A stretch of 64,000 nucleotides of DNA from Candidatus Poribacteria bacterium (GCA_965261435.1 CBDHDL010000021.1:2715950-2779949), one strand, 5' to 3'. Shown: positions 6,401-60,398, counted from the first letter of the stretch. Notes: a model not told the origin generated them from the sequence alone. Translations and numbers: made by a program.

Positions 6401-6494
6401 ATCGTTAATTTGGCGAGGTTAGGAAACCTCGCCAGCAGGTTGGTGTATCGTTAATTTGGCGAGGTTAGGAAACCTCGCCAGCAGGTTGGTGTAT
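6401..6494. repeat. perfect 47 bp tandem duplication, each copy carrying the hairpin GGCGAGGTT-AGGA-AACCTCGCC
   Basis: The two units are identical at 6401-6447 and 6448-6494. A third copy of the hairpin and its downstream flank is at 34461-34560. Confidence 0.85.
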
Positions 6495-6616: not shown

Positions 6617-8122
6617 ATGAAACTTTTCACAATGTTATGTATCTGTTTCGCGTTGTTCATTGGGTGTGGATCTGATTCAGATGTTACGGATTCACCTGCG
6701 GATTCGATTGCGGTTAATCTCCCTAATTTGGATGACCTGAAAGTGCGCGAGCAGATCCTGGCGGAAGCATTATACGAGCATAACCTACAAACTCGTAACG
6801 CACCGTCAGGTGAAGCACTTTATTATGCCCCTAATCAGCAAGTACCATATACTGGATGGGTCAAAGGAACATCATACGGCGATGTTGTCCCTTTCTCACT
6901 CTGGCAGGTGCAGAACGGTAAAAGGCACGGTATCTATCTAAAATGGTACGGCAATCAACAAAACCGGGAGAAAGGGGTTTACAAAGATGGATCTAAAGAT
7001 GGAACGTGGACATACTGGGATGAGCACGGACAAAAAAGTGAAGGATCTTTCAAAGTCGGTGCTGAAAGTGGCTTGTGGACTTATTGGTATGACAACGGAC
7101 AGAAATGGAAAGAAGGTTCCTTCAAAGTCGGTGCTGAAAGTGGTTTGTGGACTTATTGGTATGAGAACGGACAGAAATGGAAAGAGGGTGCCTTCAAAGA
7201 TGGTGTTGAAAGTGGTTTGTGGACATACTGGAATCAGAACGGACAAAAATTTAGTAAAATCATAACCGGCGATTTTGTCAATAGCGTTGCATTCAGTCCG
7301 GATGGAAAAACACTCGCAAGTGGCAGTGAGGATTCTACTGTCCTTTTGTGGGATGTGGCAACAGGCACACATAAGCACACGCTTGAGGGGCATCTGGATT
7401 CTGTAAGAAGCATCGCATTCAGTCCGGATGGAAATACGCTCGCAAGTGGCAGCTGGGATGGGACTATTCGTCTGTGGGATTTGGCAACAGGCACACACAA
7501 ACACACGCTTGAGGGGCATCTGAGGTATGTCAAAAGTGTTGCATTCAGTCCGGATGGAAAAACCCTCACAAGTGGCAGTAGTCGTGATTCTATGATTCGT
7601 TTGTGGGATGTGGCAACAGGCACACACAAACACACGCTTGAGGGGCATCAGTGGTATGTCAATAGTGTCGCATTCAGTCCGGATGGAAAAACCCTCACAA
7701 GTGGCAGTGAGGATGATACTATTCGTCTGTGGGATGTGGCAACAGGCACACACAAACACACGCTTGAGGGGCATCTGGATTCTGTCAATAGCGTCGCATT
7801 CAGTCCGGATGGAAAAACCCTCGCAAGCGGCAGTGAGGATGATACTATTCGTCTGTGGGATGTGGCGACAGGCACACATAAACACACGCTTGAGGGGCAT
7901 CAGTGGTATGTCAATAGTGTCGCATTCAGTCCGGATGGAAATACGCTCGCAAGTGGCAGTTGGGATGGGGCTATTCGTCAGTGGGATGTGGCAACAGGCA
8001 CACACAAACACACGCTTTGGGGACATGTGTTTTTTGTCAATAGCGTCGCATTCAGTCCGGATGGAAAAACGCTCGCAAGTGGCAGTGTCGATCGGACCAT
8101 CAGTCTTTGGGATGTTCCTTGA
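6617..8122 (+). CDS. lipoprotein with N-terminal MORN-like repeats and about 7 C-terminal WD40 repeats
   Basis: The lipobox is FIGC. GLWTYWYxNGQKWKEGxFK recurs three times, and AFSPDGKTLASGSxDxTIRLWDVATGTHKHTLEGH recurs about seven times. The antisense ORFs here are repeat artefacts. Confidence 0.85.
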   Translation: MKLFTMLCICFALFIGCGSDSDVTDSPADSIAVNLPNLDDLKVREQILAEALYEHNLQTRNAPSGEALYYAPNQQVPYTGWVKGTSYGDVVPFSLWQVQNGKRHGIYLKWYGNQQNREKGVYKDGSKDGTWTYWDEHGQKSEGSFKVGAESGLWTYWYDNGQKWKEGSFKVGAESGLWTYWYENGQKWKEGAFKDGVESGLWTYWNQNGQKFSKIITGDFVNSVAFSPDGKTLASGSEDSTVLLWDVATGTHKHTLEGHLDSVRSIAFSPDGNTLASGSWDGTIRLWDLATGTHKHTLEGHLRYVKSVAFSPDGKTLTSGSSRDSMIRLWDVATGTHKHTLEGHQWYVNSVAFSPDGKTLTSGSEDDTIRLWDVATGTHKHTLEGHLDSVNSVAFSPDGKTLASGSEDDTIRLWDVATGTHKHTLEGHQWYVNSVAFSPDGNTLASGSWDGAIRQWDVATGTHKHTLWGHVFFVNSVAFSPDGKTLASGSVDRTISLWDVP

Positions 8123-10077: not shown

Positions 10078-11241
10078 CTACTCAGCCTGCCGAAATATTT
10101 TATCAATAAAAGACGGAAGGAAATAATCCAATTCCTGCATTGTCTTGACCTGAAGGTCCTTAATGTCGTTTATCTTTTCTTGAAAATCATTTAAGTGTGC
10201 AACGATGCTATGCTGTTCTTCAAGTGATGGAATTGGTACCATAACAGATGCCAGTTTCGTTGCGTTGCAATTCGGTTGGGCACTACCAATTGTGTTTTCC
10301 GAGATTTGTTCCCAGTAATTAGGGGACTGAAAAAAAGCATAGAGATACTGTGGGGAAATCATTTTATTAACACGAAGACGGATCAGATATGATGCAAATA
10401 CTGCAGTCGGACATTCTTCAACGAGGAAACTTTTACCGGTCGTAGCTCCGGTACGTGCAAATAATATGTCGTCCTTCTCAAGAAGATATTTTTCAAGTTT
10501 CGGACAATCACAATAAGGCACCGTTTCCCAGTTGACTGAACCCTCTTGAATATCTGTAATACGAAGTAAATGAGGACCAATTTGTTCAGTTGTCGCAGAA
10601 GCAGTATACCCATACTGTGGTTTTTCACACAACTCACTGACGCTTTTAACCTTCCAGTCTTTACGTAGTTTCAAAATATCACGATAGACTGAACTAACGA
10701 AAACAGATAATTCATTTTCTAATTGTTGACGTAGCAAGCGCACCTCATTGATTTTTGTGAGAAAGTGATTGATTTTCTCTACAATATGACGTTGTTCTGA
10801 TAGGGAAGGTAGTTTGACTGATATTGGCAAAAGTTGTTTAGGTTTCAATTCAGATTTGATTCCACCAGGCAAGGTTCGAAACAGAATATGCTGAAATGCT
10901 TTACTCCTAAATAACCACCACAAAAATGTTGTGTCAGCTCGTTCTGGATTGACAAAGTATGCGCTGTAGTGCATAGTAGCTGAACCTAGTTTTTCTGAAT
11001 CATCTGGGTATATAGCAATTGCTCCTTTAGCAGCATTAATTCCAGACAAAACTATGTCTCCGGGTTGAAACTGTATCATTTTGGTTTTTGTAGTAGTACT
11101 GTCTCGAAATTCCATCTCACCTGTATTGAAACCGATCTTGGAGACGATACGAATTTCACCTGTTTCTAATGAAACAGGATCCGGGGTCTCTTTACGCTCT
11201 ACAAGTACTTCATCAAGTCGAACCTCTTCCCATTTTACCAT
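10078..11241 (-). CDS. hsdS: Type I restriction-modification specificity subunit
   Basis: It has two target recognition domains separated by conserved repeats (LPSLSEQRHIVEKIN ; IPSLEEQHSIVAHLN), and lies immediately downstream of hsdM. Confidence 0.85.
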   Translation of the reverse strand: MVKWEEVRLDEVLVERKETPDPVSLETGEIRIVSKIGFNTGEMEFRDSTTTKTKMIQFQPGDIVLSGINAAKGAIAIYPDDSEKLGSATMHYSAYFVNPERADTTFLWWLFRSKAFQHILFRTLPGGIKSELKPKQLLPISVKLPSLSEQRHIVEKINHFLTKINEVRLLRQQLENELSVFVSSVYRDILKLRKDWKVKSVSELCEKPQYGYTASATTEQIGPHLLRITDIQEGSVNWETVPYCDCPKLEKYLLEKDDILFARTGATTGKSFLVEECPTAVFASYLIRLRVNKMISPQYLYAFFQSPNYWEQISENTIGSAQPNCNATKLASVMVPIPSLEEQHSIVAHLNDFQEKINDIKDLQVKTMQELDYFLPSFIDKIFRQAE

Positions 11242-11242
11242 C

Positions 11243-12880
11243 TTAATATTCGCCTCCTAAAGATTCTGCTTGGATTTCCCTTATCAACTCCAGAATTCTT
11301 TGTTCCTTATGGATAATACTATCAGCAATTTCCTCAGGAGGCAGATGCACTAAAGTTTCCGCGCTGTTTGGGTTCTTGATATCTAAATCCGCTGCGACAA
11401 CCTTCTCCTCTTCATCATATTTTAAGACATCCTCAATGTCAATCTTCCACGCATACTCATTTTCTTGTCGTTCTGAAATCGGATGGAACCACTCAATACA
11501 GTCTGAAAATTCCTCAAATCTCATAGGTTTTGTCTTCGTATAGTTTTTTCGACCTTCAGGAAGCGGAATCTCATAGAACCATATTTCCTTGGTCGGATGG
11601 GAACGGTCGAAAAAGAGTAGGTTCGTTGGAATGCCGGTATATGGTGCGAAAACCCCTTTCGGCAATCGAACAATCGTATGAAGATTGAAGTTCTTAAGCA
11701 GTTCTTCCTTAATACGTGCACAGACTCCATCTTCAAAAAGTGTTCCGTTTGGTACAACAACAGCAGCACGTCCCGGCTTCCCTTTATTGCGTTCCGGACG
11801 TTTGAGTCTTCGCATGATAATCTGGAGGAATAGCAGCGCGGTTTCTGAAGTTTGCATGTTGGTTGGGAAATAGTCTTTGACGCTTTTCTCTTCTTCACCA
11901 CCAAAGGGTGGATTGGTAAGAATAACATCGTATCGGTCATTGTCGCCAATTTCGTTAAACCTTTTGACGGTGAGAGAGTTTTTAAAGTCAATCTGTGGGT
12001 TTTCCAATCCATGCAAAAGGAGATTCATCTGGCATAGAAGGTAAGGGATCGGTTTCGCTTCTATTCCGTAGATAGTAGCTTCTTGAAGCGTTTGCCGGTC
12101 AGCAATGGTTTGGCACTGTTTTTCAAGGTGGGTAAATGCCTCAACAAGAAAACCGCCGGTGCCGCTGGCAGGATCAAGCACAGTTTCACCGAGTTGAAGA
12201 TCCGTTACCGCAACGATAAAATTGACAACAGGTCGGGGTGTGTAAATTTCACCAGAGTCCCCTACGGCATCGCGCATTTCCCGAAGCATCGTTTCATAAA
12301 AACGGCTAAGCGTATGCATTTCCTCGGATGCATCAAAATGGATACTGTTGACTTTGTTAACTATATCTCTGAGTAGCCAACCAGATTGTATCCGATTAAT
12401 GATTCCTCTGAAAACAGTTGCAATGACATCTTCACGACCCTTCCCATCTGCAGATCGAAGGCTACGTAAATAGTGAAAAAGCCCTTGGCCTTTAGTGCCA
12501 TCTGGAAGATTTGCCTCTTCAAGATTGATAAAGTTTATCAGATCTTCCCCCGTGATGCCGCCTTCATCTGCTGCCCAATCTCTCCAGCGGTACGGCTCAT
12601 TAATAAGTGGGTGAAAATCTTTGCCTGCAAGTTCAGCTTCCGATTCCCGGATATGTTCCATGTCATCAATGAATTTGAGAAACATAATCCAAGTTAGCAT
12701 CGGAATTCGGTCTAACTCACCGCTAAGTCCTTTGTCCTTACGCATAATGTCGCGGGCAGATTTGATAAGCGTGTTCAACTCCTGCGCCGTTGTTTGCGAG
12801 TTTTCTAATTTCTCTAATAGGTGCAACTGTTTGTGGTTTTGTGTCATATCATTCCTCTCTTTGTATATATTATGCCTCAT
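11243..12880 (-). CDS. hsdM: Type I R-M N6-adenine DNA methyltransferase
   Basis: It has an HsdM N-terminal domain, FxGxG (DPASGTGGFL), and NPPFGG. The start may instead be the ATG at 12847. Confidence 0.9.
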   Translation of the reverse strand: MRHNIYKERNDMTQNHKQLHLLEKLENSQTTAQELNTLIKSARDIMRKDKGLSGELDRIPMLTWIMFLKFIDDMEHIRESEAELAGKDFHPLINEPYRWRDWAADEGGITGEDLINFINLEEANLPDGTKGQGLFHYLRSLRSADGKGREDVIATVFRGIINRIQSGWLLRDIVNKVNSIHFDASEEMHTLSRFYETMLREMRDAVGDSGEIYTPRPVVNFIVAVTDLQLGETVLDPASGTGGFLVEAFTHLEKQCQTIADRQTLQEATIYGIEAKPIPYLLCQMNLLLHGLENPQIDFKNSLTVKRFNEIGDNDRYDVILTNPPFGGEEEKSVKDYFPTNMQTSETALLFLQIIMRRLKRPERNKGKPGRAAVVVPNGTLFEDGVCARIKEELLKNFNLHTIVRLPKGVFAPYTGIPTNLLFFDRSHPTKEIWFYEIPLPEGRKNYTKTKPMRFEEFSDCIEWFHPISERQENEYAWKIDIEDVLKYDEEEKVVAADLDIKNPNSAETLVHLPPEEIADSIIHKEQRILELIREIQAESLGGEY

Positions 12881-15200
12881 AAATCAACTTCTGAAGTTCT
12901 GCAACAGCATTTCGTAGTTGCTCTGCCCCTTTGAATACTTTTAAGATTTCACGAATATTGCCAAACTCAGAAATAGGTGGAACGTTTAAAGCATCAGGGA
13001 TTTTCAGTTCGTCGGGGCCGTGTTGACTATATTTATCAAGCAAAATCCCAAGTACATACTGGCCAATAACGTCGTACTGTTTAAAAAAATCTGTATTGTC
13101 TTCTTGGACTCGTTCCGCTCGTTGTTTTCTTGTCTGGAGGGGAGCCCCGAAAGCGACATGGCAAAACAGATCAATTGAATCAAAGGTGTCACCATCTGGG
13201 AGTTGTAATTCTTTCACTAACTGTTCTCTTTCAATACCGAATTGTCCCAATTCGTCAATAGTTTCACTGCGTGATTGTTGGTCTATCCACTTTTCACGCA
13301 GTTTAGATTCAAATTCGTAAAGCGTATAGATTTTATCACTTACATATTCTATGTATGTTTTATGTTGCTGACTTCCATCAGGATTCAGGATAATAACTCC
13401 GTCTTCAGCAATCGTCACTGTCCCTTCATCAACATAGAACTTTTGCCCCTTTGACGGTTGAACAGAAGTGCGTTTTCCTCTACCTTTGTTTTGTTGACGA
13501 TCAGTATCTGTTTCTATAACTTCTTCATCTTCGTCTATCGGCTCGCCATCAAAATCAGGGTCTGCAAAATGTTTAAACGACGCTCCTGTGTAATCAATAA
13601 TATTAAAAGTGAATTTGTCATATTCCTCACAGACACGAGTCCCTCTACCAATCATCTGCTTAAATTCAACCATTGAACCAACACCGCGTGCAATAGCAAT
13701 ATTTTTCACTGTTGGAGCATCAACACCAGTAGTGAGGAGCTTAGAAGTAGTCACAATGATAACAGAATCATCCTCAATATCTTGGAATCGACTGAGACGT
13801 TCACGACCATATTCGCCTTCGTCGGCGGTTATACGACTTACATAATCGGGATATCTTTGGACATGCTCAGCGTTTAGATTAGAGAGGATTTCTCGCATGG
13901 TGCCTGCATGCTCTTGGTCAACACAAAAAACAATAGTTTTGGCGTACGGATCAGATTCCAATAAACCTGTCAAATGTTTTGCAATTGCTTCCGTACGCGG
14001 TCTTAAAGCAAGTGTATTTTCAAAGTCTTCAGTGTTGTACTGCTTATCAGGTATTATTTTACCATGTCGATCAGTTTGTCCTGGATCAGGTTGCCAACCC
14101 TCTGCATCTGCTGTAGTTAAGACGTGTCGAACACGATAAGGGGCAAGGAACCCATCTTCAATACCCTGTTTAAGTGTGTAGGTATAGACAGGATTTCCAA
14201 AATATTGATAGGTGTTCCGAGTCTCTTCGTGAAGAGGTGTAGCAGTCATACCGAGTTGCACTGCTGGTTCAAAGTATTCCAGAACTACCCTCCATTGACT
14301 ATCATCTTGAGCAGAGCCGCGGTGACACTCATCCACAATAATAAGATCAAAGAAATCCTTTGCGTATTCGCGATAGATACCAGGATTATCCTCTCTGGGA
14401 CCGATAGATTGATAAAGCGCGAAATAGATACCTCGGCTTTTGACAACTTCACCTTGTTCTATCCGATGTCGTGCCTCTCCAAAAGCTGCAAAGTCTTTAT
14501 TCATTGGATCATCCACAAGGATTTTCCTATCGGACAGGTAAAGAATTTTGGGAAGACGCGGGTCTGTTTTGAGATTCCAACGTTGTTGCCAAAGTTTCCA
14601 ACAAATTTGAAATGCAGTGGTGGTTTTTCCTGTTCCAGTTGCCATTGTCAAAAGAATTCGTCTTTGATCTTTTACAATGGCCGAAATAACATTACTTATC
14701 GCAATTTGTTGATAGTACCTGGGGATTTTACCGCCAGTAAGGTCGAACGGTGAAAGAATAATATCTTCCTGTTGTGTAGTAAAACCTTCATGTGTTTTTA
14801 GGCGTTGCCAAAGTTCCGCTGGTTGAGGCATTTCGTAGAATTTAGACTCTACACCTGTTAAAAAATCAAACTCCACAAATAGTTCACCATTTGTAGAGTA
14901 CGCAAATTTAAGCCCTAACATTTGCGCGTAAGTTTTCGCTTGTTGGAGGCCATCAGCTGGCAATTTGCAATCTGCTTTTGCCTCAACAACAGCAATCGGA
15001 AAATGGGGTTGCCGGTAGTAGAGGATATAATCGGCACGTCTTGCTTTACCGCGTATTCCTTCACCTTTTATTTTCCCATCTGTGAAATGATGCTCACGGA
15101 CAAAAGATGGTACTTCTGGATTGTTTGAATCGTCCCAACCGGCATCTTTCAGCAGAGGATCAATGTTTCTGGTCCGCGTTTCAGCTTCATTCATAGTCAA
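12870..15200 (-). CDS. hsdR: Type I restriction enzyme R subunit
   Basis: The N-terminus is HsdR_N (EAETRTRNIDPLLKDAGW). It has Walker A MATGTGKTTTA, DEAH-like IVDECHRGS, and helicase motif VI QMIGRGTR. Confidence 0.85.
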   Translation of the reverse strand: MTMNEAETRTRNIDPLLKDAGWDDSNNPEVPSFVREHHFTDGKIKGEGIRGKARRADYILYYRQPHFPIAVVEAKADCKLPADGLQQAKTYAQMLGLKFAYSTNGELFVEFDFLTGVESKFYEMPQPAELWQRLKTHEGFTTQQEDIILSPFDLTGGKIPRYYQQIAISNVISAIVKDQRRILLTMATGTGKTTTAFQICWKLWQQRWNLKTDPRLPKILYLSDRKILVDDPMNKDFAAFGEARHRIEQGEVVKSRGIYFALYQSIGPREDNPGIYREYAKDFFDLIIVDECHRGSAQDDSQWRVVLEYFEPAVQLGMTATPLHEETRNTYQYFGNPVYTYTLKQGIEDGFLAPYRVRHVLTTADAEGWQPDPGQTDRHGKIIPDKQYNTEDFENTLALRPRTEAIAKHLTGLLESDPYAKTIVFCVDQEHAGTMREILSNLNAEHVQRYPDYVSRITADEGEYGRERLSRFQDIEDDSVIIVTTSKLLTTGVDAPTVKNIAIARGVGSMVEFKQMIGRGTRVCEEYDKFTFNIIDYTGASFKHFADPDFDGEPIDEDEEVIETDTDRQQNKGRGKRTSVQPSKGQKFYVDEGTVTIAEDGVIILNPDGSQQHKTYIEYVSDKIYTLYEFESKLREKWIDQQSRSETIDELGQFGIEREQLVKELQLPDGDTFDSIDLFCHVAFGAPLQTRKQRAERVQEDNTDFFKQYDVIGQYVLGILLDKYSQHGPDELKIPDALNVPPISEFGNIREILKVFKGAEQLRNAVAELQKLIYEA

Positions 15201-15238
15201 AAATTACATCTACATGCAACCCCTTGTTGTCAAAATCA

Positions 15239-15532
15239 CTATGACTTTTTACGGGATGATGATTTCAGGATATTTCCTAAAGGATCCATAACACCAATCG
15301 TTGTGTCTTTGTAGTGCTCTAAAGCTGCCTGAGTGGCTGCATCGTCTGCTCCCGCTACGTAGACAGGACGTCTATATCCCCGAAGTTGATCGGCTGCATC
15401 TTTTATGGTATCAGATGTTTCAACCTCAATGACTTGACGCTTTGTATTGATATCTGGACCTTGTCCTTTATTATATGAAGCACCTTTATTCTCAGCAATT
15501 TGTTCTGCGGTTTTGTCATGTTTAGTAGCCAT
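15239..15532 (-). CDS. hypothetical protein
   Basis: The ORF is protein-like (..RGYRRPVYVAGADDAATQAALEHY..) with no recognised motif. Confidence 0.4.
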   Translation of the reverse strand: MATKHDKTAEQIAENKGASYNKGQGPDINTKRQVIEVETSDTIKDAADQLRGYRRPVYVAGADDAATQAALEHYKDTTIGVMDPLGNILKSSSRKKS

Positions 15533-15609
15533 TATTTTTCTCCTTGTAATTATTTGTTCGTTGTAGGTTTGTGATCAAAAACATTATTTCTATGATGTTG
15601 AATGCTATA

Positions 15610-15915
15610 TCACACCTTCTGTGCTACCATACTGGAAAGGATACCGAGAAGCCTATCACACCGCTCAATCGTATAGGTTGACATATCAAGCTGCAATCGG
15701 TTTTCTTGCAAGTTGAGGAATAGCCACTCAACCCCTGTTGTGCTAACACCATAGATCAAAGGGATGTCATTTCCTTTCTCGGTATAAAAACGTTGGGCAG
15801 CAAGCATATCTGCAACACATTACCCAATTCCAAGTTTTAAGTCAAGGTTTTTTGCCTCAACGACAACAATGATTGGTGCTTCTAAATAGAACTGTTCAGG
15901 TGACAGAAACGACAT
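15610..15915 (-). pseudogene. 3' fragment of the PD-(D/E)xK paralog family with an in-frame TAA (CAA to TAA) at 15820-15822
   Basis: Translation MSFLSPEQFYLEAPIIVVVEAKNLDLKLGIG*CVADMLAAQRF..ILGILSSMVAQKV aligns to residues ~97-201 of the 201 aa paralogs. There is no homology upstream of 15915. Confidence 0.7.
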
Positions 15916-16119
15916 TAAGAGTTTTCACTTGCAAATCCTACCTTTTTCGTGTATCCTATACTTTGGTTTGTTGGTCGGGAATGTCATCCGCGTCGCATGG
16001 CGCGGTCCCTACCGAAACGAATGACATCGGGAGCAATACTAAGGTTAAACAGTGCGATCCAATAAACAAAACAGAACATAATATCCAAATAGTGAAAGGA
16101 TTGATTTACAATCAAGGAG

Positions 16120-16449
16120 ATGTTTAAGATGGTCATTAACGGGGAAGGAATGATAACTTATTATATCTATAATAAACTGTTCGATGAAACCTATACCGCC
16201 TATATCCAAAAAAATGGAGAGAATTGGCACGGTACAATTGCGGAACTTCCCGAAATAGAACATACTGCGGAGACTGCCGAAGCTGTACAAGAAAAATTAC
16301 CAGATATGCTGCAGCAAACCCTAATTGCGAAAGAAGAAGCTTGGGATCTGCAGATCAAAGAGGATATGAAAGCGGGTCGACTTGATCATCTTATTGAGAA
16401 GGCTCTTGAAAATTATAGGACAGGTAAATGTTCTAAGATAGTTCCATAG
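16120..16449 (+). CDS. type II antitoxin (HicB-like/UPF0150-like N-terminal half) partnered with a RelE/ParE toxin
   Basis: YTAYIQKNGENWHGTIAELPEIEHTAETAEAVQE resembles HicB-family antitoxins. The gene abuts the toxin gene (stop 16449, toxin start 16451). Confidence 0.55.
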   Translation: MFKMVINGEGMITYYIYNKLFDETYTAYIQKNGENWHGTIAELPEIEHTAETAEAVQEKLPDMLQQTLIAKEEAWDLQIKEDMKAGRLDHLIEKALENYRTGKCSKIVP

Positions 16450-16450
16450 C

Positions 16451-16717
16451 ATGAACATTTCTCAATTTGAACACATACAAGATCAAGATTTCATAAATTT
16501 GGTAGCAAGACTTCCTCAAGCCTTGCAGAATCGTGTTGCCAGGCAATTCCAAGTCCTACAAGAAAACCCTTTATATCCATCTCTTCATTTCAAAAAAGTC
16601 TCTGATCTTTGGTCATTACGTATTACTGACAATTACAGAGCTTTAGGACAAGAAGAAAATGGGAAGATCATTTGGTTTTGGATCGGAAAACATGACGAAT
16701 ATGAGAGGCGGATCTGA
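16451..16717 (+). CDS. type II toxin, RelE/ParE superfamily
   Basis: 88 aa. YPSLHFKKVSDLWSLRITDNYRALGQEENGKIIWFWIGKHDEY matches the RelE/ParE core pattern. Confidence 0.75.
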   Translation: MNISQFEHIQDQDFINLVARLPQALQNRVARQFQVLQENPLYPSLHFKKVSDLWSLRITDNYRALGQEENGKIIWFWIGKHDEYERRI

Positions 16718-16830
16718 CTATCTCTCCTTATGGTGTGGCATCTCCATGAAATAAAATATCAAGAATTGCCTCTTCAAGATAAATTAAACCGATATGTTCT
16801 TGTTGTTTAGGCTTCATTTTTCACCTCTTC

Positions 16831-17070
16831 CTACGTGTCGTCTAAACGTTTTTGATCTTCATCTTGGTATAAACGCCAACCAATTCTGCTTCCACTGGTT
16901 GAGACCTCTGGTTGCACTCGAAAATCACTCTCAAGTTTATAAAGAATAGCACCTATTAGATGTCCAGCCCAGTTGTTGGGATCGTCCTTTTTTCCCGGCA
17001 ATTCTAATCGTGCTTTAATATCGTTTATGCTCATATACGCCTCATCTGGTGCTGGGAGAGTGTCTAACAA
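16831..17070 (-). CDS. hypothetical small protein
   Basis: ORF only. It uses a TTG start and its frame stays open upstream. Confidence 0.25.
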   Translation of the reverse strand: MLDTLPAPDEAYMSINDIKARLELPGKKDDPNNWAGHLIGAILYKLESDFRVQPEVSTSGSRIGWRLYQDEDQKRLDDT

Positions 17071-17312
17071 AGTTTCTTCTAATAATTGTATTCCTGCTTT
17101 TGCAGTAAGTATGGGCTTGTCAGGATTTTTACCAAGATAGTTGATATTACATATATATATACATTGGTCTCATCAGGCGTTATTGTAATAGTTTCTACAT
17201 TTGCATTCTGTCTTGACATATTATATCTCCTTTTATCTTGGAATTGTCATTAGCTAATTTACTTATTGTCATTAGCTATTTTACTTAAAGTCTGAATAAA
17301 TCATTCGAAAAA

Positions 17313-17652
17313 CGACATCCTTACATGGACTTTCTTATAAAGGGGTATATCTACTTCATCAGAACTATATTCAATAAAGTCCCTTTTATGTTCATCACTC
17401 CACTGCATTCCCTCATCACGAGGTTTTACCAACTCGATATTGTGATTTTTGTAGTCGTATCCATGGTAATCTTTAATGTTGTGAAAAATGTTCCATGCAA
17501 TTGTCTCTGCTTCACGTCTACTAATTCGACGTTGGAAGTTAGGTGGTCCCTCTGTATAACTCGGATATTCTATTGAGATTTCAAAGCAAGGCGGGTTAGT
17601 TTCCTTTAGAATAATAGCAAGATTAAATTCACTATTAGCATCTATATGCCAT
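17313..17652 (-). pseudogene. fifth, disrupted member of the PD-(D/E)xK paralog family with a divergent 3' part
   Basis: ATG GCA TAT (MAY) at 17652-17644 is followed by a 10 nt insertion (AGATGCTAAT) that gives MAYRC*. In the shifted frame, SEFNLAIILKE..FEISIEYPS resembles the paralog N-termini (SEFTLEIVQK..FSEIEPVEPS), then it diverges to the stop at 17313. Confidence 0.5.
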
Positions 17653-17701
17653 GTGACAGTTTCTCCAAGTAGTACGTTAAAACTATGGACTATTTATAAT
17701 C

Positions 17702-18307
17702 TTATACCTTTTGTGCCACCATACTGGAAAGGATACCGAGAATCCTATCACACCGCTCAATTGTATAAGGTGTCATATCAATATGCAAACACTTTCCTTG
17801 CAACTTCAGAAATATCCACTGAACTCCTGTTGTACTTGCTCCATAAACAGTAGAAATGTCATTACCTCTATCAGCATTGAAACGTTGGACTGCGATCATC
17901 TCTGCAACACACTGTCCAAGTCCAAGTTTTAAATCGTGATTTTTTGCCTGGACAAGCGCGATAATCGGTGCATCCAAATAAAATTGTTCAGGTGACAGAC
18001 TCACTAAAAAATCACACACGCCGGTCAAACCTTTTTCAGCATCAACGCTGAAGTCAATACCAGAAAACAGACTAATGCTGTGATCAAAGTGCTCAAGAAG
18101 GTCAACGAGCACGGCAACAACTATCATTTCTGACCTTGCTTTCTCGGTACCGATAGCGGTGGCTAATGATGCCTTTCGCGCTAATCCCATCGTGAGATAT
18201 GTGCTTGGCTCCACTGGTTCTATTTCAGAGAAGAGACCTAAAGACCGAACCGTATTGAGTTGAAACGTTTTCTGCACAATTTCTAAGGTAAACTCACTAT
18301 ACGCCAT
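17702..18307 (-). CDS. PD-(D/E)xK-motif protein, paralog 3 (variant QAK in place of EAK)
   Basis: 201 aa, with GVCDFLVSLSP ... IIALVQAKN. About 55-60% identical to its neighbours. Confidence 0.7.
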   Translation of the reverse strand: MAYSEFTLEIVQKTFQLNTVRSLGLFSEIEPVEPSTYLTMGLARKASLATAIGTEKARSEMIVVAVLVDLLEHFDHSISLFSGIDFSVDAEKGLTGVCDFLVSLSPEQFYLDAPIIALVQAKNHDLKLGLGQCVAEMIAVQRFNADRGNDISTVYGASTTGVQWIFLKLQGKCLHIDMTPYTIERCDRILGILSSMVAQKV

Positions 18308-18356
18308 GTGAGAATTTCTCCATGCAGTACGTTAAGACAATAACTATTGTATAACC

Positions 18357-18962
18357 TTACGCCTTTTGTGTCACCATACTGGAGAAGATGCCGAGGATCC
18401 TATCACACTGAGCGATTTGGTAGGTTGACATATCAAGCTGCAAGCACTTTCCTTCTAACTTCAGGAATAACCAATCAACTCCTGTTGTAGACGCACCATA
18501 AACACAAGAAATTTCATTCCCTTTTTCGATATTAAAACGTTGTGCGGCGAGCATCTCTGCGGCACATTGTCCAAGTCCAAGTTTCAAGTCGAGATTTTTT
18601 GCCTCAACAAGCGCGATGACAGGTGCTTCTACATAAGATTGTCGAGGCGACAGGCTTATCAGGAAATCACACACACCCGTTAATCCGTTTTCAGCGTCAA
18701 CGTTGAAGTCAATGCCAGAAAATAGACTAATTTTGCGATCAAATCTTTCACGGAGTTCAACGAGAACATTAGAAACAATCAGTTCTGATCGTGCTTTCTC
18801 AGTGTTTATAGTAGTGGCTAAGGGTACATTTCTTGCTAATATATTTGTGAGTTCTGCACTGAGTTCCATCGGTTCTATTTCAGAAAAGATGCAGGCGTGT
18901 TCAACAAAATCAAGTTCAAATTCTTTTTCCACTGTCTCCAGCGTAAAATTGCTATAAGCCAT
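18357..18962 (-). CDS. PD-(D/E)xK-motif protein, paralog 2
   Basis: 201 aa, with GVCDFLISLSP ... VIALVEAKNLD (D..ExK). Confidence 0.7.
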   Translation of the reverse strand: MAYSNFTLETVEKEFELDFVEHACIFSEIEPMELSAELTNILARNVPLATTINTEKARSELIVSNVLVELRERFDRKISLFSGIDFNVDAENGLTGVCDFLISLSPRQSYVEAPVIALVEAKNLDLKLGLGQCAAEMLAAQRFNIEKGNEISCVYGASTTGVDWLFLKLEGKCLQLDMSTYQIAQCDRILGIFSSMVTQKA

Positions 18963-18992
18963 ATCTGTACCTCCTGGTTCCTCTAACTCCTC

Positions 18993-19598
18993 TTATACCT
19001 TTTGTGCTACCATACTGGAGAGGATACCGAGAATCCTATCACACCGCTCAATCGTGTAGATTACCATATCAATATGAAGACGGTTCCCTTCCAATTTAAG
19101 AAATTTCCAGTCTGTCCCTGAAGTGGTGGCACCATAAAAACACTGGATATCATTTCCTTTTTCGGCATTAAAACGTTGTGCTGCGATCATCTCCGCGACA
19201 CACTGTCCAAGTCCGATGAGAAGGTCATCTTTTTTCGCCTCAACCACGATAATAACGGGTGCCTCCAAAAGAGATTGCCGCGGGGACAAACTCACTAAGA
19301 AATCACACACCCCGGTTAATCCGTTTTCAGAATCAACGTTGAAGTCAATGCCAGAAAAAAGGCTGATACTACGATCAAAGTGCTCAAGGAGGTCAACGAG
19401 CACATCAGCAACGATCATTTCTGACTTTGCCTTCTCTGTGCCTATTGTCGCAGCTAAGGGAGCTTTTCTTGCCAAAGCTGTCACGAGATGTGCGGTCGGA
19501 TCAACCGCCTCTATTTCAGAAAAGAGTCCTACAGTATCAACTGCTTCAAGCTGAAATGCTGGCAGCACCGACTCTAAGGTCCATTCGCTATAAGACAT
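18993..19598 (-). CDS. PD-(D/E)xK-motif protein, paralog 1
   Basis: 201 aa, with GVCDFLVSLSP ... VIIVVEAKKDD. Confidence 0.7.
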   Translation of the reverse strand: MSYSEWTLESVLPAFQLEAVDTVGLFSEIEAVDPTAHLVTALARKAPLAATIGTEKAKSEMIVADVLVDLLEHFDRSISLFSGIDFNVDSENGLTGVCDFLVSLSPRQSLLEAPVIIVVEAKKDDLLIGLGQCVAEMIAAQRFNAEKGNDIQCFYGATTSGTDWKFLKLEGNRLHIDMVIYTIERCDRILGILSSMVAQKV

Positions 19599-19639
19599 AA
19601 TAACACCTCTTGGAAGAAGTAGGCGGTTAGTGTACTTTC

Positions 19640-21571
19640 TTATTCCTTCTTCTCTTCATCCTCATTCGCATCTTCATCAACGACTTCGTATTCAGCATCA
19701 ACGACATCGCCTTCAGGAACATCTTCAGAAGGAGCATCACCGGGTGGAGTTCCCTGTTCGGCGTCTGCTGTCTGTTGATAAAGTTGTGCAGAAGCTTCAT
19801 GCCAAATCTGCATCAGGTCGTCGGTAGCTGATTTTATCTCAGCACTGTTGTTTGCTTCCAATGCTTGCTTGACACGTTCAACACCAGCGTTAACCTTTTC
19901 CTTCGTCGCATCGTCTACCTTGTCGCCAAATTCCTGTAGATTTTTCTCAGTTTCATAGACTAAAGAATCGGCACGGTTGCGGTTTTCAACTTCCTCACGT
20001 TTCTGTTTATCCTCTTCAGCGTGGGTTTCTGCATCCTTCACCATCTGTTCAATTTCAGCATCGGTGAGACCGGAAGAAGCAGTGATTGTGATCTTTTGCT
20101 CTTTACCTGTCGCAGTATCCTTAGCAGAGACGTTAAGGATACCGTTCGCATCAATATCAAATGTAACTTCAATCTGCGGAACCCCTCTGGGTGCTGGCGG
20201 AATATCACCGAGACGGAAACGACCAATGGTCTTGTTATAGACCGACTGTTCGCGCTCCCCTTGAAGCACATGAACATCAACAGCAGTCTGATTGTCTTCC
20301 GCTGTAGTGAACTTCTCAGATTTCTTCGTGGGAATAGTCGTATTTTTTTCTATTAAACGCGTAAACATACCACCGAGTGTTTCAATACCGAGTGAAAGTG
20401 GAGTCACATCAAGCAATAAGATGTCTTTGACTTCTTCGTCACCAGCGAGAACACCACCTTGAATAGCGGCACCGACTGCGACCACTTCATCAGGATTTAC
20501 ACCTTTGTGCGGTTCTTTTCCAAAGAGTTGCTGTACGGCTTCCTGAACTTTCGGCATCCGTGTCTGTCCACCAACGAGTATGACTTCATCAATCTCGGAG
20601 GGTTGCATCTCGGCATCAGCAAGTGCTTGTTTGCACGGTTCAAGGGAACGTTGAACGAGGTCATCAGTGATCTGTTCCAGTTTTGCACGTGTGAGTGTAA
20701 GGTTAAGGTGCTTCGGTCCACTGGCATCTACAGTAATAAACGGCAGGTTAATATCTGTCTGTAATGTGCTGGAAAGCTCACACTTTGCAGTTTCCGCGCC
20801 TTCTTTTAAACGTTGCAATGCCATCTGATCATTTCGCAGGTCAATACCCTGGCTACTCAGAAATTCTTGAGCCATCCAATCAATGATAGTCTGGTCAAAA
20901 TCATCACCACCGAGCCGTGTATCCCCGTTCGTACTTTTCACTTCAAAGACACCGTCACCGATCTCCAGAATAGAGATGTCAAATGTACCACCACCAAGGT
21001 CGTAAACAGCGATCTTCTTGTCGCCTTCATTCTGTAGTCCATACGCGAGTGAGGCAGCAGTGGGTTCATTGATAATCCGCAAAACTTCCAAACCTGCGAT
21101 TTTACCAGCATCCGCAGTAGCTTGACGTTGAGAATCGTTGAAGTAGGCAGGCACGGTGACCACAGCTTGCGTGACCTCTTCTCCAAGATACGCCTCTGCA
21201 GTTTCCTTCATTTTTCGTAAGACCATCGCTGAAATTTCAGGTGGCGTGTATTCCTTACCGTCAATATTTACGGCTGCATCGCCATCTTTATCGCCTTTTA
21301 GTTCATAAGGCACTCTGGAAGTATCATCACCGAGTTCGTTAAACTTTCTCCCCATGAATCGCTTGATGGAAAAAATTGTATTTTCGGGGTTCGTTATAGC
21401 TTGTCTTTTGGCGACTTGCCCGACAGGACGTTCTCCCTCTTTGGTAAATCCGACAACCGAGGGAGTCGTCCGATTCCCTTCCGCGTTTTCAATAACCTTT
21501 GCATCGCCGCTCTCTAAGACAGCCACACAAGAATTCGTTGTTCCCAAATCAATTCCAATTACTTTAGACAT
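19640..21571 (-). CDS. dnaK: molecular chaperone DnaK (Hsp70)
   Basis: [14 protein letters not shown] and DLGGGTFD are Hsp70 signatures, and the C-terminus is acidic. The true start is MSKVIG, after a GGAGAT RBS. No grpE or dnaJ is adjacent. Confidence 0.97.
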
Positions 21572-21682
21572 TTTTATCTCCAATGTATATGTATCATTTA
21601 ATGTTCTATCGTCAACAAACTAATACCATTTCTATAAATCATTGTCTCATTAGACGGTTATGATGGTAGTTATTCTTCAGGA

Positions 21683-50278: not shown

Positions 50279-50500
50279 CTGCGCCTGTTTTCGTAGGGAC
50301 TGGGTTTCCCTGTCCGTTGTTCGTAGGGACTGGGTTTCCCTGTCCGTTGTTCGTAGGGACTGGGTTTCCCTGTCCGTTGTTCGTAGGGACTGGGTTTCCC
50401 TGTCCGTTGTTCGTAGGGACTGGGTTTCCCTGTCCGTTGTTCGTAGGGACTGGGTTTCCCTGTCCGTTGTTCGTAGGGACTGGGTTTCCCTGTCCGTTGT
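50279..50500. repeat. perfect 30 bp tandem repeat, seven identical units plus one degenerate leading unit (unit TCGTAGGGACTGGGTTTCCCTGTCCGTTGT)
   Basis: Seen in sequence. Each unit carries the AGGGA..TCCCT inverted repeat. The ORFs 50239..50505 and 50254..50547 are translations of the repeat. Confidence 0.9.
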
Positions 50501-50658: not shown

Positions 50659-51864
50659 ATGAAACAGATTGAAGGTGGAATCACTTCTGTTGGAGGTGTA
50701 AAAGCCTCCGGTGTTCATGCTGGAATCAAAAAAGCAGAACTGAAAGATTTAGCACTCATCGTCACCGATACACCAGCGATTGCTGCGGGTGTATTCACAA
50801 AAAACAGCGTTACTGCTGCTCCTATATTGGTATGTCGGGAACATCTCAGCGATCCAACTGCACAAGCAGTTATAGTCAATAGTGGCAATGCGAATGCTTG
50901 TACTGGTGAAATGGGTATGACAAACGCATATCGTATGGCATCAGCAACAGCAGAGCAACTGAGCATTGATCCTGAACTTGTCTTAGTCTCATCTACTGGA
51001 GTGATTGGACAACAGTTGCCTATGGACAAGATTCATAATGGTATTCAGATGGTATTCAAAGCACTCAGTAGAGAAGGTAGTGCTGATGCAGAAGAAGCTA
51101 TAATGACCACCGATACACATCCAAAATCTTTTGCGGTTGAACTGGAGATTGATGGCAAACCTGTTAGAATCGGTGGAATTGCTAAAGGCGCTGGTATGAT
51201 TGCTCCAAATATGGCGACAATGCTCTCGTTTTTGACCACTGATGTTTGCATTAATAGTGATACCCTACAGACAGCTTTAAATGATGTTGTTGATGACACA
51301 TATAATCTATTGACCGTTGATACGGACCGAAGTACTAATGACACTGTTCTTATTCTGGCTACGGGTAATGCAGAAAACTCAGAAATTGTTAAGCCCAACG
51401 GCAATGCTTATGAACAATTCCGAGATGGATTGTTGTATGTATGTACAGAATTGGTAAAAATGTTAGCGCGAGATGGAGAAGGAGCAACTAAACTCGTTGA
51501 AGTTGTTATTCAAGGTGCGAAAAATAGAGACGATGCTGAAAAGGCTGCCCGGGCCGTTGCTGAGTCACCATTGGTGAAAACCGCTGTCTTTGCAAACGAT
51601 GCAAATTGGGGACGAATTATGATGGCAATCGGAAAATCTGGTGCCGAATTTGACCCTTATCAGGTAGATGTGCTACTCGGTGATTATCACCTTGTAAAAA
51701 AAGGAATGGACTCTGGTTATGACGAGGAAAAAGCTACACAGCTATTTGAAAATGATCCTGTACGAATAACAATAAATCTTCGTGCCGGTGAAGCTGAGAT
51801 TACTATGTGGACGTGTGACTATTCCTACGATTATATCCGAATTAATGCGGATTACCGCACATAA
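50659..51864 (+). CDS. argJ: bifunctional glutamate N-acetyltransferase / amino-acid acetyltransferase
   Basis: The autoprocessing site is ATMLSF, and the overall sequence is ArgJ-like (KASGVHAGIKK, TTDT..). Confidence 0.93.
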   Translation: MKQIEGGITSVGGVKASGVHAGIKKAELKDLALIVTDTPAIAAGVFTKNSVTAAPILVCREHLSDPTAQAVIVNSGNANACTGEMGMTNAYRMASATAEQLSIDPELVLVSSTGVIGQQLPMDKIHNGIQMVFKALSREGSADAEEAIMTTDTHPKSFAVELEIDGKPVRIGGIAKGAGMIAPNMATMLSFLTTDVCINSDTLQTALNDVVDDTYNLLTVDTDRSTNDTVLILATGNAENSEIVKPNGNAYEQFRDGLLYVCTELVKMLARDGEGATKLVEVVIQGAKNRDDAEKAARAVAESPLVKTAVFANDANWGRIMMAIGKSGAEFDPYQVDVLLGDYHLVKKGMDSGYDEEKATQLFENDPVRITINLRAGEAEITMWTCDYSYDYIRINADYRT

Positions 51865-57984: not shown

Positions 57985-58213
57985 TGAAATACACCTTTCG
58001 CCCCGCTGGGGCTTAGGATAGAGATACAAATATGCTACTATACACCTTTCGTCCCTCTGGGACTGTCGGATTGATGTAGTTTCTATTTTTGCTGAGTTTC
58101 TAAACGACATAAGACTATATTAATAAGAACAGAGCAGCCCCAGCGGGGCGACAGGTGTATAGAAATGTGAATAGAAAACAAATAGTCTTTAGCCCCAGCG
58201 GGGCGACAGGTGT
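57985..58213. repeat. four copies of a 24 nt motif (ATACACCTxTCGCCCCGCTGGGGC), two direct and two inverted, each with a GCCCC-GCT-GGGGC hairpin
   Basis: Seen in the intergenic region between convergent genes. Related GCT-loop hairpins occur at 62470-62545. Confidence 0.7.
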
Positions 58214-58250
58214 ATGGTTATGCAGACAGTTATTGTAGTCTTAAGTTAAG

Positions 58251-60398
58251 TCATTCTGTAGTTTGAAATAGTGATTCATCAATTTCTGAGTTTATCTTCA
58301 CACTTTTTATTCGCCTCTCAGAGTAAGGATTTCCATCAACATACTCATCAACACGATATGGTAACTTTACTCCGTTTATTTCTCTATAATCAGAATATAA
58401 TCTCTCTTTTTCAATTGTTACACCCTGTTCTGTCTCGCGAAATGCATACTTAACTACGTAATGTGTTTCATTACTAATATAGACCTTTAGAATTTCACCC
58501 GAAGGTTGCTTTACGAGAAGAATAGAAGTAGAAACTCCATCAATGTCTTCGGTTCCTGCATATAAAACAGACGCATCAGATTCTGTGAGATGGACAATTA
58601 GGTGAATAATGTCTCTAAAAACGGCATCTTTGAATGACCTTGACATTTCTGGTGGAAGTGGTTGTGCACCCTCAGGAATCATGATATAAGCAGCTTCCCC
58701 ATCATATACGATATTAAATGCGCCTTGTGGCGTGGTTATATCTTGTCGCATTTTGCCAGGATAATTCTGATATACAACAACATTTGCCACAACTTTTCCC
58801 ATCGGTGTAATCAGATCAGTTTGTCCTTCTGTAACAACATTTTTCACTGCTTTCAACATCTCCAGTCCACCGAGTGCGACAGCAACATTCGCGAGGATTT
58901 CCTTACCTTTAGCAATGTCGCCTTCTGTCGCTTCTGGTAATGGTTCGGATGGCGGCGGTTCAGTTTCTTTAATCTCAATCAGATTGACATCACCGAATTC
59001 ACTTAAAGGACGATCAAAGTTCTCTTGATTGCCTACCGTTACTATAGTCAGTGCATCTGGATGAAGATACTTTTGAGCAACAGCCTGCACATCTTTTGCT
59101 GTGACTTTAGCAATGTTAGCAGTGTATGTCTTAAGAAAATCTGGATCGAAATCTCGATATGCAAGCATCATCTGCTGAAAAGCAATCTGAGAGCTGCTCT
59201 CAAATCCGAATACGAAGGAGTTGATAAGCGAGTCTTTTGTCAGTTGTAATTCTTCGTCAGATATAGGGTTTTCGCGAATCTCACGTATGATTTCAATTAT
59301 GAGTGAGATCGCTTGTGCGGTTTTCTCAGAACTTGACCCACAATATGCAAACCATTCCCCTGGGTTTGTATAGAAACTCGTCTGCATAAGACTCCCAACC
59401 ATGTATGCAAGCCCGTGTTTTTCCCGTACCTGTTTCATCAAACGCGAAGTGAACCCTCCTTCCCCAAGTATTTCATTCATCACACGAAGTGCAAAGAAAT
59501 CAGGAAAATCGGGAGTACGTTTGATTCCAAGATGACCGATCAACATTGTCGTCTGGGGTAAACTTTTTTGAATATGGTTAACAGAAGGTTTGTATGTCAC
59601 CTCTACGTCTGGTATATTCGGATAATCTATATTGTTTATTATCCAACCTGCAAAAGCCTTTTCAAGCTGCTTAATCAACTTCTCGGTTTCAAAATCACCT
59701 GTAATAGAGAGCATAATGTTATTGGGATGGTAATACTTTGAATGAAATGCTTTCAAATCGTCAACTGTTATGCTTTCAACAGTTTCAATCTCCGAATACC
59801 AACCGAACGGATGTTCTTTTCCATAGAGAATTGCCGAAAAGTTCCGCCAAGCCAGTTGTATAGGATTGTCATTTCTTCTTCGGATAGCTTCAATTGCCTG
59901 CTGTTTGCGGAGATCAAGTTTGTCCTCTCTGAAAGCGGGGTTCCGCAGTACATCAGCAAAGATCTCTAACCCCTTTTCAATGTCTTCAGCCATTGTTGAA
60001 AGACTCACAGATCCGAATTCGGGAGACATACTGACCTCAACGGAGGCAGCCATAGATTCCAACTCTTCGTTTAATGCATCCGGTTCACGGGATATTGTAC
60101 CACCGGAACGCATAACACTTGCGAAAATTGATGCTAAGCCAATTTTATCTTTTTGATCATATATTGTACCAGTTTTGACAAGTCCGCTAATGTCAAATAC
60201 AGGTAATTCATGATCTTCAATAAGGTATAACGTCATTCCATTTGAGAGTTTTCTAACATCTGGAACGGGAGGATTGAATTGAATGAGGTCATAAGTTAGT
60301 TCTTCGTGAGGTTTCGCATGCAGAGATAGATTTCCCAACACAAAAAAGGCTGCAATGAGTATACAAATAGATAGTTTTTTGGTCGCAGATATATTCAT
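58251..60398 (-). CDS. secreted M16 family peptidase-like protein (non-catalytic partner subunit; no HxxEH)
   Basis: It has a signal peptide and the M16 N- and C-domain architecture. It is translationally coupled (ATGA overlap) to the upstream M16 gene. Confidence 0.75.
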   Translation of the reverse strand: MNISATKKLSICILIAAFFVLGNLSLHAKPHEELTYDLIQFNPPVPDVRKLSNGMTLYLIEDHELPVFDISGLVKTGTIYDQKDKIGLASIFASVMRSGGTISREPDALNEELESMAASVEVSMSPEFGSVSLSTMAEDIEKGLEIFADVLRNPAFREDKLDLRKQQAIEAIRRRNDNPIQLAWRNFSAILYGKEHPFGWYSEIETVESITVDDLKAFHSKYYHPNNIMLSITGDFETEKLIKQLEKAFAGWIINNIDYPNIPDVEVTYKPSVNHIQKSLPQTTMLIGHLGIKRTPDFPDFFALRVMNEILGEGGFTSRLMKQVREKHGLAYMVGSLMQTSFYTNPGEWFAYCGSSSEKTAQAISLIIEIIREIRENPISDEELQLTKDSLINSFVFGFESSSQIAFQQMMLAYRDFDPDFLKTYTANIAKVTAKDVQAVAQKYLHPDALTIVTVGNQENFDRPLSEFGDVNLIEIKETEPPPSEPLPEATEGDIAKGKEILANVAVALGGLEMLKAVKNVVTEGQTDLITPMGKVVANVVVYQNYPGKMRQDITTPQGAFNIVYDGEAAYIMIPEGAQPLPPEMSRSFKDAVFRDIIHLIVHLTESDASVLYAGTEDIDGVSTSILLVKQPSGEILKVYISNETHYVVKYAFRETEQGVTIEKERLYSDYREINGVKLPYRVDEYVDGNPYSERRIKSVKINSEIDESLFQTTE

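Follow-up and report, generated by a model that had tools for sequence, protein, structure and literature searches.

A tandem array of predicted stand-alone HsdR-N-like PD-(D/E)xK nucleases downstream of dnaK in Candidatus Poribacteria

Rarer PD-DExK protein families have been described near several CRISPR-cas loci, where such proteins are referred to as a 'possible nuclease' (PMC6546367, PMC5704561); that any of these is the family studied here is not confirmed. In type I restriction-modification systems, the nuclease of the HsdR subunit is fused to an SF2 translocase motor. Uma2 (DUF820) proteins belong to the same superfamily, and their genes are multi-copy in cyanobacteria. Here, we analysed a stretch of 64,000 nucleotides (the window) from the sponge symbiont Candidatus Poribacteria (GCA_965261435.1 CBDHDL010000021.1:2715950-2779949), with a focus on positions 15,610 to 19,598, where a group of similar minus-strand genes follows dnaK. 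Taking family identity and evolutionary picture together, we consider it probable that this region holds a tandem array, specific to its locus, of stand-alone nucleases with a single PD-(D/E)xK domain, which would be remote relatives of the N-terminal nuclease domain of type I HsdR.

The array comprises three intact open reading frames (ORFs) of 201 codons, termed A (18993-19598), B (18357-18962) and C (17702-18307), which lie head-to-tail on the minus strand directly after dnaK (19640-21583, minus strand; Pfam HSP70, E 1e-268). The spacers measure 41 nt from the dnaK stop codon to A, 30 nt between A and B, and 49 nt between B and C. A preliminary description of the sequence had reported these three genes together with the motifs GVCDFL(V/I)SLSP and VEAK(K/N) and one copy carrying QAK, all of which was confirmed; QAK is found in C, where a GAG-to-CAG codon change results in E120Q within an intact ORF. 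The paralogues are, however, more similar than the ~55-60% identity given there, with pairwise values of 66-72% for protein and 71-74% for DNA. A family hidden Markov model (HMM), built from 138 Poribacteria copies and used to scan positions 15000-19700, detected exactly four elements, namely A, B and C, with E-values of ~1e-105 that are far beyond chance, and a fragment at 15613-15918. In addition, A, B and C all matched the cas-associated PADLOC profile PD_DExK (PDLC01472) with E-values from 6.8e-47, obtained for A, to 3.9e-46, over residues 54-199 and profile positions 2-142 of 146.

An AlphaFold2 model of A, built on 95 diverse relatives, reached a pLDDT of 97.3 and a pTM of 0.92. Its elements follow the order helix 55-73, strand 79-85, strand 97-103, strand 114-120, helix 128-146 and strand 153-159, which is the alpha-beta-beta-beta-alpha-beta core of PD-(D/E)xK proteins. 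In this model, E60 lies in helix 1, D99 in strand 2 (97-103), E120-x-K122 at the end of strand 3 (114-120) and Q132 in the next helix; paralogue A keeps all five residues. Among the 138 Poribacteria copies, E60 is conserved in 138, D99 in 137, E120 in 132, K122 in 136 and Q132 in 136, and the same five columns are at least 90% conserved over the 95 diverse representatives. The N-terminus (M1, Y3, F6) is, like the core, highly conserved, and a search for specificity-determining positions turned up very few that are fixed differently between clades, variation being found in peripheral loops and the N-terminal hairpin. Substitutions in the active site occur in nine of the 138 copies, all nine of them in arrays. 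The Q120 of C recurs in L040_2718 (89% identical; L numbers denote genome loci) and is not present in the orthologues L002_10656 and L008_12629. Foldseek searches of this model against PDB and BFVD returned solely PD-(D/E)xK-type proteins, all as weak matches, including the DrdV nuclease domain (7lo5), 9y1l, MGME1 and restriction-endonuclease-like mitoribosomal proteins; for solved structures, E-values were 7e-4 or worse, TM scores at most 0.59 and identities 9-13%. The proteins have a confidently predicted PD-(D/E)xK fold, in line with the earlier reading of the motifs, which is borne out by both the expected residues in the modelled core and the PADLOC match. Each protein is likely, as judged from its motifs, a metal-dependent DNA endonuclease, perhaps related to defence.

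The family was placed among known ones by profile comparison. Pfam searches with A, B and C returned no family at E-values up to 1, and neither the single proteins nor a profile of 95 sequences found a usable match in Pfam, NCBIfam or PDB sequences. The family had been called unrecognised, which is fair because it is absent from Pfam. Weak PDDEXK_12 and HSDR_N_2 matches appeared in some members, HSDR_N_2 in one of 95 relatives at 1e-3. A remote link emerged from hhalign, which aligned the family over its full length (171 columns) with a 206-aa Planktothrix protein (L081:4778-5398) at 96.5% probability and an E-value of 9e-10. This protein scores 31.1 bits on Pfam HSDR_N and passes the gathering score of 25.1. 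Based on this link and the fold, we place the family as an apparently unclassified branch of stand-alone HsdR-N-like PD-(D/E)xK nucleases; it lies outside the Pfam HSDR_N families as currently defined. The Planktothrix protein is part of a row on the Planktothrix agardhii plasmid p4 (L081 4778-6603) in which the HsdR_N-like gene, a Uma2 gene and a member of the present family follow each other between the DUF1156 methyltransferase and DUF499 of one defence operon. When the family was compared with the neighbouring Uma2 gene by hhalign, no relationship was detected (probability 0.1%).

Besides the three intact genes, the region contains the remains of a fourth copy. The 3' fragment (15610-15918, minus strand) covers codons 101-201, matches HMM positions 101-201 in a single frame (E 3.9e-48) and carries a TAA at 15820-15822 instead of the near-invariant Gln132 codon, as had been noted from the sequence; its best DNA matches are C-like copies (78-81%). 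Downstream of C, DNA alignment revealed a 5' stub (17644-17701, minus strand) consisting of ATGGCATAT (Met-Ala-Tyr) preceded by 49 nt of spacer with homology to that between B and C. The preliminary description had seen here a divergent fourth copy at 17313-17652, in which a 10-nt insertion was thought to give MAYRC*. This proved incorrect, as the family HMM gave no signal in 17313-17652, just beyond the 5' stub, and the open frame shows full-length homology to a rare, unrelated family of 140-172 aa (P0271-P0274). The frame belongs to a 5'-truncated gene (17304-17646, minus strand; homologues P0271-P0275, 94% to 65% identical) in which ~27-30 codons are missing at the N-terminal end and no start codon is left. 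The P0271-P0274 sequence reads ...IAHINANSEFNLAIILKETNPP..., and across what had been taken for a MAY/SEF junction the same family reads ...KVLIAHINANSEFNLAIILKETNPP..., so that the supposed insertion is native sequence of this gene (H-I-D-A-N). The SEF shared by the truncated gene and the N-terminus of the nuclease family is a coincidence. Of the five paralogues with two pseudogenes proposed earlier, three intact genes and the 3' fragment remain, and the other 'pseudogene' is the unrelated truncated gene; the count is three intact copies and one disrupted copy, not five.

The truncated gene appears to have arrived as part of a larger segment. Its native homologues adjoin IS3-type and DDE transposases, and its DNA is 87% identical to L087:5084-5414. 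The non-coding window segment 15910-16056 matches L087:6451-6596 with 79% identity, and its order and orientation relative to the truncated gene are shared between the window and L087; both ends of a ~1.7-kb block (about 15919-17646) are thus colinear with a mobile-associated segment. The block fits exactly into the gap between family-gene codons 3 and 101, and no remnants of fourth-copy codons 4-100 were found within it. The simplest reading is that stub and 3' fragment are the two ends of one fourth copy, probably broken by ~1.7 kb of foreign DNA. The rest of the block (15919-17303) holds two small ORFs on the minus strand (17079-17219 and 16831-17070), a ParE-like toxin gene (16451-16717, plus strand; Pfam ParE_like, E 9e-8), its 109-aa partner (16120-16449, plus strand) and the non-coding end. 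Segment 15910-16056, which has a GC-rich hairpin (GGGACCGCGCCATGCGACGCGG), occurs once in the window and, among the loci fetched, elsewhere only in L087. Homologues of the 109-aa partner were also observed ~1.1-2.4 kb downstream of a family singleton linked to a beta-propeller gene in 11 other loci (L054, L060, L061, L063, L068, L069, L071, L072, L074, L075 and L080), five of which have a homologue of the ParE-like toxin as well; with toxin-antitoxin genes being abundant, this co-occurrence may be due to chance.

The family is large: grouping at 90% identity leaves 4,687 clusters, and grouping at 50% leaves 1,804 representatives, nearly all of ~200 aa. Locus statistics given here and below cover the best 80 genome loci, all 80 of which are from Candidatus Poribacteria, with several loci per genome and up to at least 14 family copies in a genome. 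All 23 plasmid matches were cyanobacterial and annotated as 'hypothetical protein', the annotation also returned throughout by cluster look-ups of 10 distant representatives, and neither phage records nor IMG/VR contained a family match. A literature search found nothing specific on the family in Poribacteria or cyanobacteria and no characterised member. Among the 80 loci, 51 have a singleton and 29 a same-strand array of two to eight copies, often with fragments. A clade of 28 lies downstream of trpA, with identities of 82-100% across 28 species-level genomes, ~20 copies follow beta-propeller genes, and several clades follow dnaK, which is the conserved upstream anchor of the array locus and precedes family copies in 13 further loci. 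Singletons sit among metabolic genes whose synteny is conserved, and the surroundings of arrays abound in restriction-modification genes of types I, III and IIG-like. On cyanobacterial plasmids, the family gene lies within a DISARM system, flanked by drmD and the methyltransferase gene, or between a DUF1156 methyltransferase and DUF499.

The largest arrays seen were those of L058 and L049. In L058 (6778-11494), eight family elements, seven full-length and one a short fragment, follow an Eco57I-like gene of 963 aa. L049 (6314-14023) has six full-length copies and one split copy, which is interrupted by an IS607-type resolvase and TnpB, and a WD40-trypsin gene lies inside the array. PADLOC matches of neighbouring genes to mad2 and mad3 looked generic (in the case checked, mad3 was an ABC-transporter ATPase) and were not used as evidence.

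The tempo of evolution differs from what had been supposed. The paralogues had been described as rapidly diversifying; comparison of the three window genes gave dN values of 0.19-0.24, dS of 0.94-1.14 and an omega (dN/dS) of 0.17-0.22, and omega between orthologues was 0.05-0.21. Orthologues of A in L001, L002 and L003 are 96-99% identical (omega 0.05-0.09). The orthologue of B is L002_9371 (dS 0.32, omega 0.21), and B falls into an 80%-identity cluster of its own with five copies, all five at dnaK loci; C and its orthologue L002_10656 gave an omega of 0.13. Clade-wide, omega was 0.09-0.16 and slightly higher in dnaK arrays. Moreover, 67 of 81 array copies resemble a copy from a different genome more closely than they do any member of their own array, and adjacent array copies are mostly 61-80% identical, with a maximum of 92%. 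The nearest relative in another genome sits at the same type of locus for 35 of 35 dnaK-linked, 28 of 28 trpA-linked and 19 of 21 copies of a third type. These data show strong purifying selection on the family and paralogue lineages older than the species splits. Rapid change is limited to copy number and order; the sequences are old and constrained.

The dnaK locus holds between one and at least five copies among relatives, with a single copy in L001 and in L003, a pair in L006, three copies in L005 and five in L002, compared with three and the disrupted copy in the window, and gene order changes from A-B-C in the window to X1-X2-B-A-C in L002. In L001 and L003, the flank that in the window comes after the 3' fragment, including the 97-aa ORF and hsd genes described below, immediately adjoins a lone A-type gene; the gene of L003 passes into this flank exactly at its stop codon. 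The last 55 nt are 92-97% identical among a subset of copies, which we read as local homogenisation and a substrate for recombination. A function of these 55 nt as an RNA or DNA element was considered and rejected, as they have no stable fold (z-scores -0.35 to +1.05) and no Rfam match, and their synonymous sites are only slightly more conserved than usual in the clade. Likewise rejected were 135-aa antisense ORFs that recur inside the copies; a null model of synonymous shuffling reproduces them (median 104 versus 106 codons).

These observations are consistent with a birth-and-death process in which ancient local duplications would have been followed by long retention, with losses through unequal crossing-over or insertions. 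Unequal crossing-over may take place within the near-identical last 55 nt. The single-copy state of the closest relatives, L001 and L003, would then reflect contraction of an array, because a crossover between near-identical 3' ends would yield the flank they share after the A-type gene. The fourth copy in the window was probably destroyed when codons 4-100 were replaced by the 1.7-kb mobile-derived block with its ParE toxin-antitoxin pair. As the gaps are short and a consensus scan found no terminator between dnaK and A, the array may be co-transcribed with dnaK. Each protein would act as a divalent-metal-dependent DNA endonuclease, probably as a dimer by analogy with other small restriction-type enzymes.

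Several points weigh against this account. Nuclease activity and substrate are predicted from motifs only, and direct searches detected no relative in Pfam or PDB. When the N-domain of the window's own HsdR was compared with the family, the motifs lined up, but the match was not significant (6.6% probability). Contraction in L001 and L003, as opposed to expansion in the window, is deduced from the finding that orthologues of B and C are more widespread, and not from a rooted species tree, and co-transcription with dnaK is read only from spacing and missing consensus terminators. As to function, a role in defence fits poorly with the trpA-linked single-copy orthologues of 28 genomes, which have no partner methyltransferase there, and a housekeeping role fits poorly with pseudogenes, copy-number variation and plasmid carriage in defence operons. 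The role is far less certain than family identity and evolutionary picture, and our estimates of it are rough: an accessory or solitary restriction-like nuclease in DNA-level conflict is tentatively favoured, housekeeping nucleic-acid processing is doubtful, a role of some other kind somewhat more so, and a selfish passenger gene unlikely.

Phage-defence nucleases had been raised in the preliminary description, and the array might be a repertoire of them, each solitary, perhaps modification-dependent and with its own specificity, so that the set as a whole broadens protection. The PADLOC PD_DExK match, the conserved catalytic residues, copy number that varies among strains, the proximity of arrays to type I, III and IIG-like restriction-modification genes in several loci, and the plasmid copies inside DISARM and DUF1156/DUF499 operons all speak for such a set. 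We regard it as possible, short of probable, since there is no sign of diversifying selection, clade-fixed differences are few with variation lying in peripheral loops and the N-terminal hairpin, and core single-copy members sit in syntenic metabolic neighbourhoods; moreover, the window has no CRISPR array, the 25 PADLOC families listed for it include no cas family, and there is no known experimental report of a defence phenotype for the family. These single-copy members, kept next to trpA (28 genomes, 82-100% identity) and propeller genes (~20 genomes), point instead to a housekeeping nucleic-acid enzyme acting in repair, recombination or RNA processing, with the dnaK-linked array as a set of redundant duplicates, and an omega of ~0.09 together with the highly conserved N-terminus (M1, Y3, F6) and core is in keeping with this idea. 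Pseudogenes and active-site variants in the arrays (nine of 138 copies, all in arrays), a copy number from one to eight, plasmid members inside defence operons and a restricted-looking distribution, with only Poribacteria and cyanobacteria as named sources, make it rather doubtful.

The genes might also be selfish passengers that, like free-standing homing endonucleases or cassettes, insert between operon genes and accumulate side by side. They always lie on the same strand, 20-60 nt after dnaK, trpA, drmD or a DUF1156 methyltransferase, gene order in arrays varies among strains, and three unrelated small nuclease genes form a row in one Planktothrix operon. Strict clustering by locus gives no hint that copies have moved from one locus to another; near-identical copies within a genome are missing (adjacent copies at most 92% identical), no flanking repeats were noticed, phage records and IMG/VR gave no match, and orthologues are under purifying selection across species, so that we consider passengers an unlikely explanation. 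The preliminary description had further suggested an immunity or effector module, and tandem diversified paralogues with decaying copies do resemble orphan immunity arrays, although this is a resemblance only. No toxin, Rhs, CdiA or secretion-system gene occurs in the neighbourhood, and a toxin gene with a variable C-terminal domain was seen neither beside the array nor in 35 array loci. Conservation of the catalytic residues would be unusual in immunity proteins, all copies are of equal length without a modular tip, and the array begins directly after dnaK. With no toxin partner and the catalytic residues kept, proteins of a polymorphic toxin system are highly improbable here. Finally, the anciently diverged and catalytically intact nucleases that purifying selection maintains in Poribacteria and cyanobacteria, as core singletons at housekeeping loci and as variable arrays, could together form one undescribed system of interchangeable nuclease subunits, for example as hetero-oligomers or as trans-acting modules that might be recruited by motor or methyltransferase complexes (type I restriction-modification, DISARM, DUF1156/DUF499); we view this as a long shot. 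Our preferred reading remains an old, locus-specific array of stand-alone nucleases, whatever the role of its members.

The array lies in what had been called a defence island. Genes for a PIN protein, for type I restriction-modification and for the ParE toxin-antitoxin pair are indeed present, but the island is a short variable stretch, flanked by citric-acid-cycle genes and dnaK. The restriction-modification system, identified by Pfam and PADLOC, is encoded on the minus strand by hsdR (12870-15200; REase_I), hsdM (11243-12880; MTase_I) and hsdS (10078-11241; Specificity_I). Between hsdR and the 3' fragment lies an ORF of 97 aa (15239-15532, minus strand) that has no Pfam match. It contains a GPDI...IEVET motif resembling PD...ExK and is conserved immediately after the dnaK-locus arrays of L001, L008, L024 and L040. 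A type III restriction-modification pair (PADLOC MTase_III, E 6.6e-223, and REase_III, E 6.6e-150) was found ~40 kb from the array, probably at 58251-61915 as estimated from ORF sizes.

Three repeat regions were observed elsewhere in the window. Positions 50290-50500 hold seven perfect head-to-tail copies of the 30-bp unit TTCGTAGGGACTGGGTTTCCCTGTCCGTTG, each with a GGGA...TCCC inverted repeat, ~160 nt upstream of an ORF at 50659-51864; as they have no spacers, these repeats are not a CRISPR array. At 6401-6492, a perfect 46-bp tandem duplication with the hairpin GGCGAGGTT...AACCTCGCC lies just upstream of a WD40-repeat gene (6617-8122), which itself holds DNA repeats of 126 bp and 72 bp. Four copies of a GC-rich palindromic, REP-like unit (AGCCCCAGCGGGGCGA and its complement) are located at 57989-58222, beside the ORF 58251-60398.

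Taken together, the locus draws attention to a large family with a confidently predicted nuclease fold that is missing from Pfam, has no studied member that we could find, and is held by a defence database only under a generic cas-associated label. For annotation, the analysis provides a defined family with its active-site residues and corrects a false 'pseudogene'. It also calls for caution, as a tandem array with pseudogenes beside restriction genes need not be a rapidly diversifying immunity module. With arrays that are old and conserved, enzyme specificity and partner proteins are worth testing, rather than signatures of an arms race, and the question raised is what purpose a conserved set of multiple nuclease paralogues serves in Poribacteria and cyanobacteria.

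Among described groups, the PADLOC PD_DExK profile evidently represents the same sequence family as A, B and C. Its label records an occasional cas-locus neighbourhood and not a function, and the window has neither a CRISPR array nor a listed cas family. Cas12-type matches among the neighbours of 35 array loci came from one member only, which is probably the IS-borne TnpB gene identified by Pfam in L049. The solved PD-(D/E)xK nucleases, including type II and IV restriction endonucleases, share the core fold predicted for the family and are the only type of structural match, but these matches are weak and no partner methyltransferase is conserved with the family. Uma2 proteins are of similar size, belong to the same superfamily and are encoded side by side with the family in the Planktothrix operon, whereas a relationship in sequence is undetectable. 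Unlike type I HsdR, with its fused motor, the window proteins are single-domain proteins of 201 aa without a helicase motor. The likeness to stand-alone HSDR_N (PF04313) and HSDR_N_2 (PF13588) proteins comprises profile-profile homology over the whole length and the motif order D, EAK, Gln ~10 residues on, and T(T/N)G-x-x-W/F-x-F, the QxxxY motif of HsdR corresponding to Q-C-x-A-E-M in the window family. The family is best regarded as a newly described, lineage-expanded group of stand-alone HsdR-N-like PD-(D/E)xK nucleases rather than as a new kind of system.

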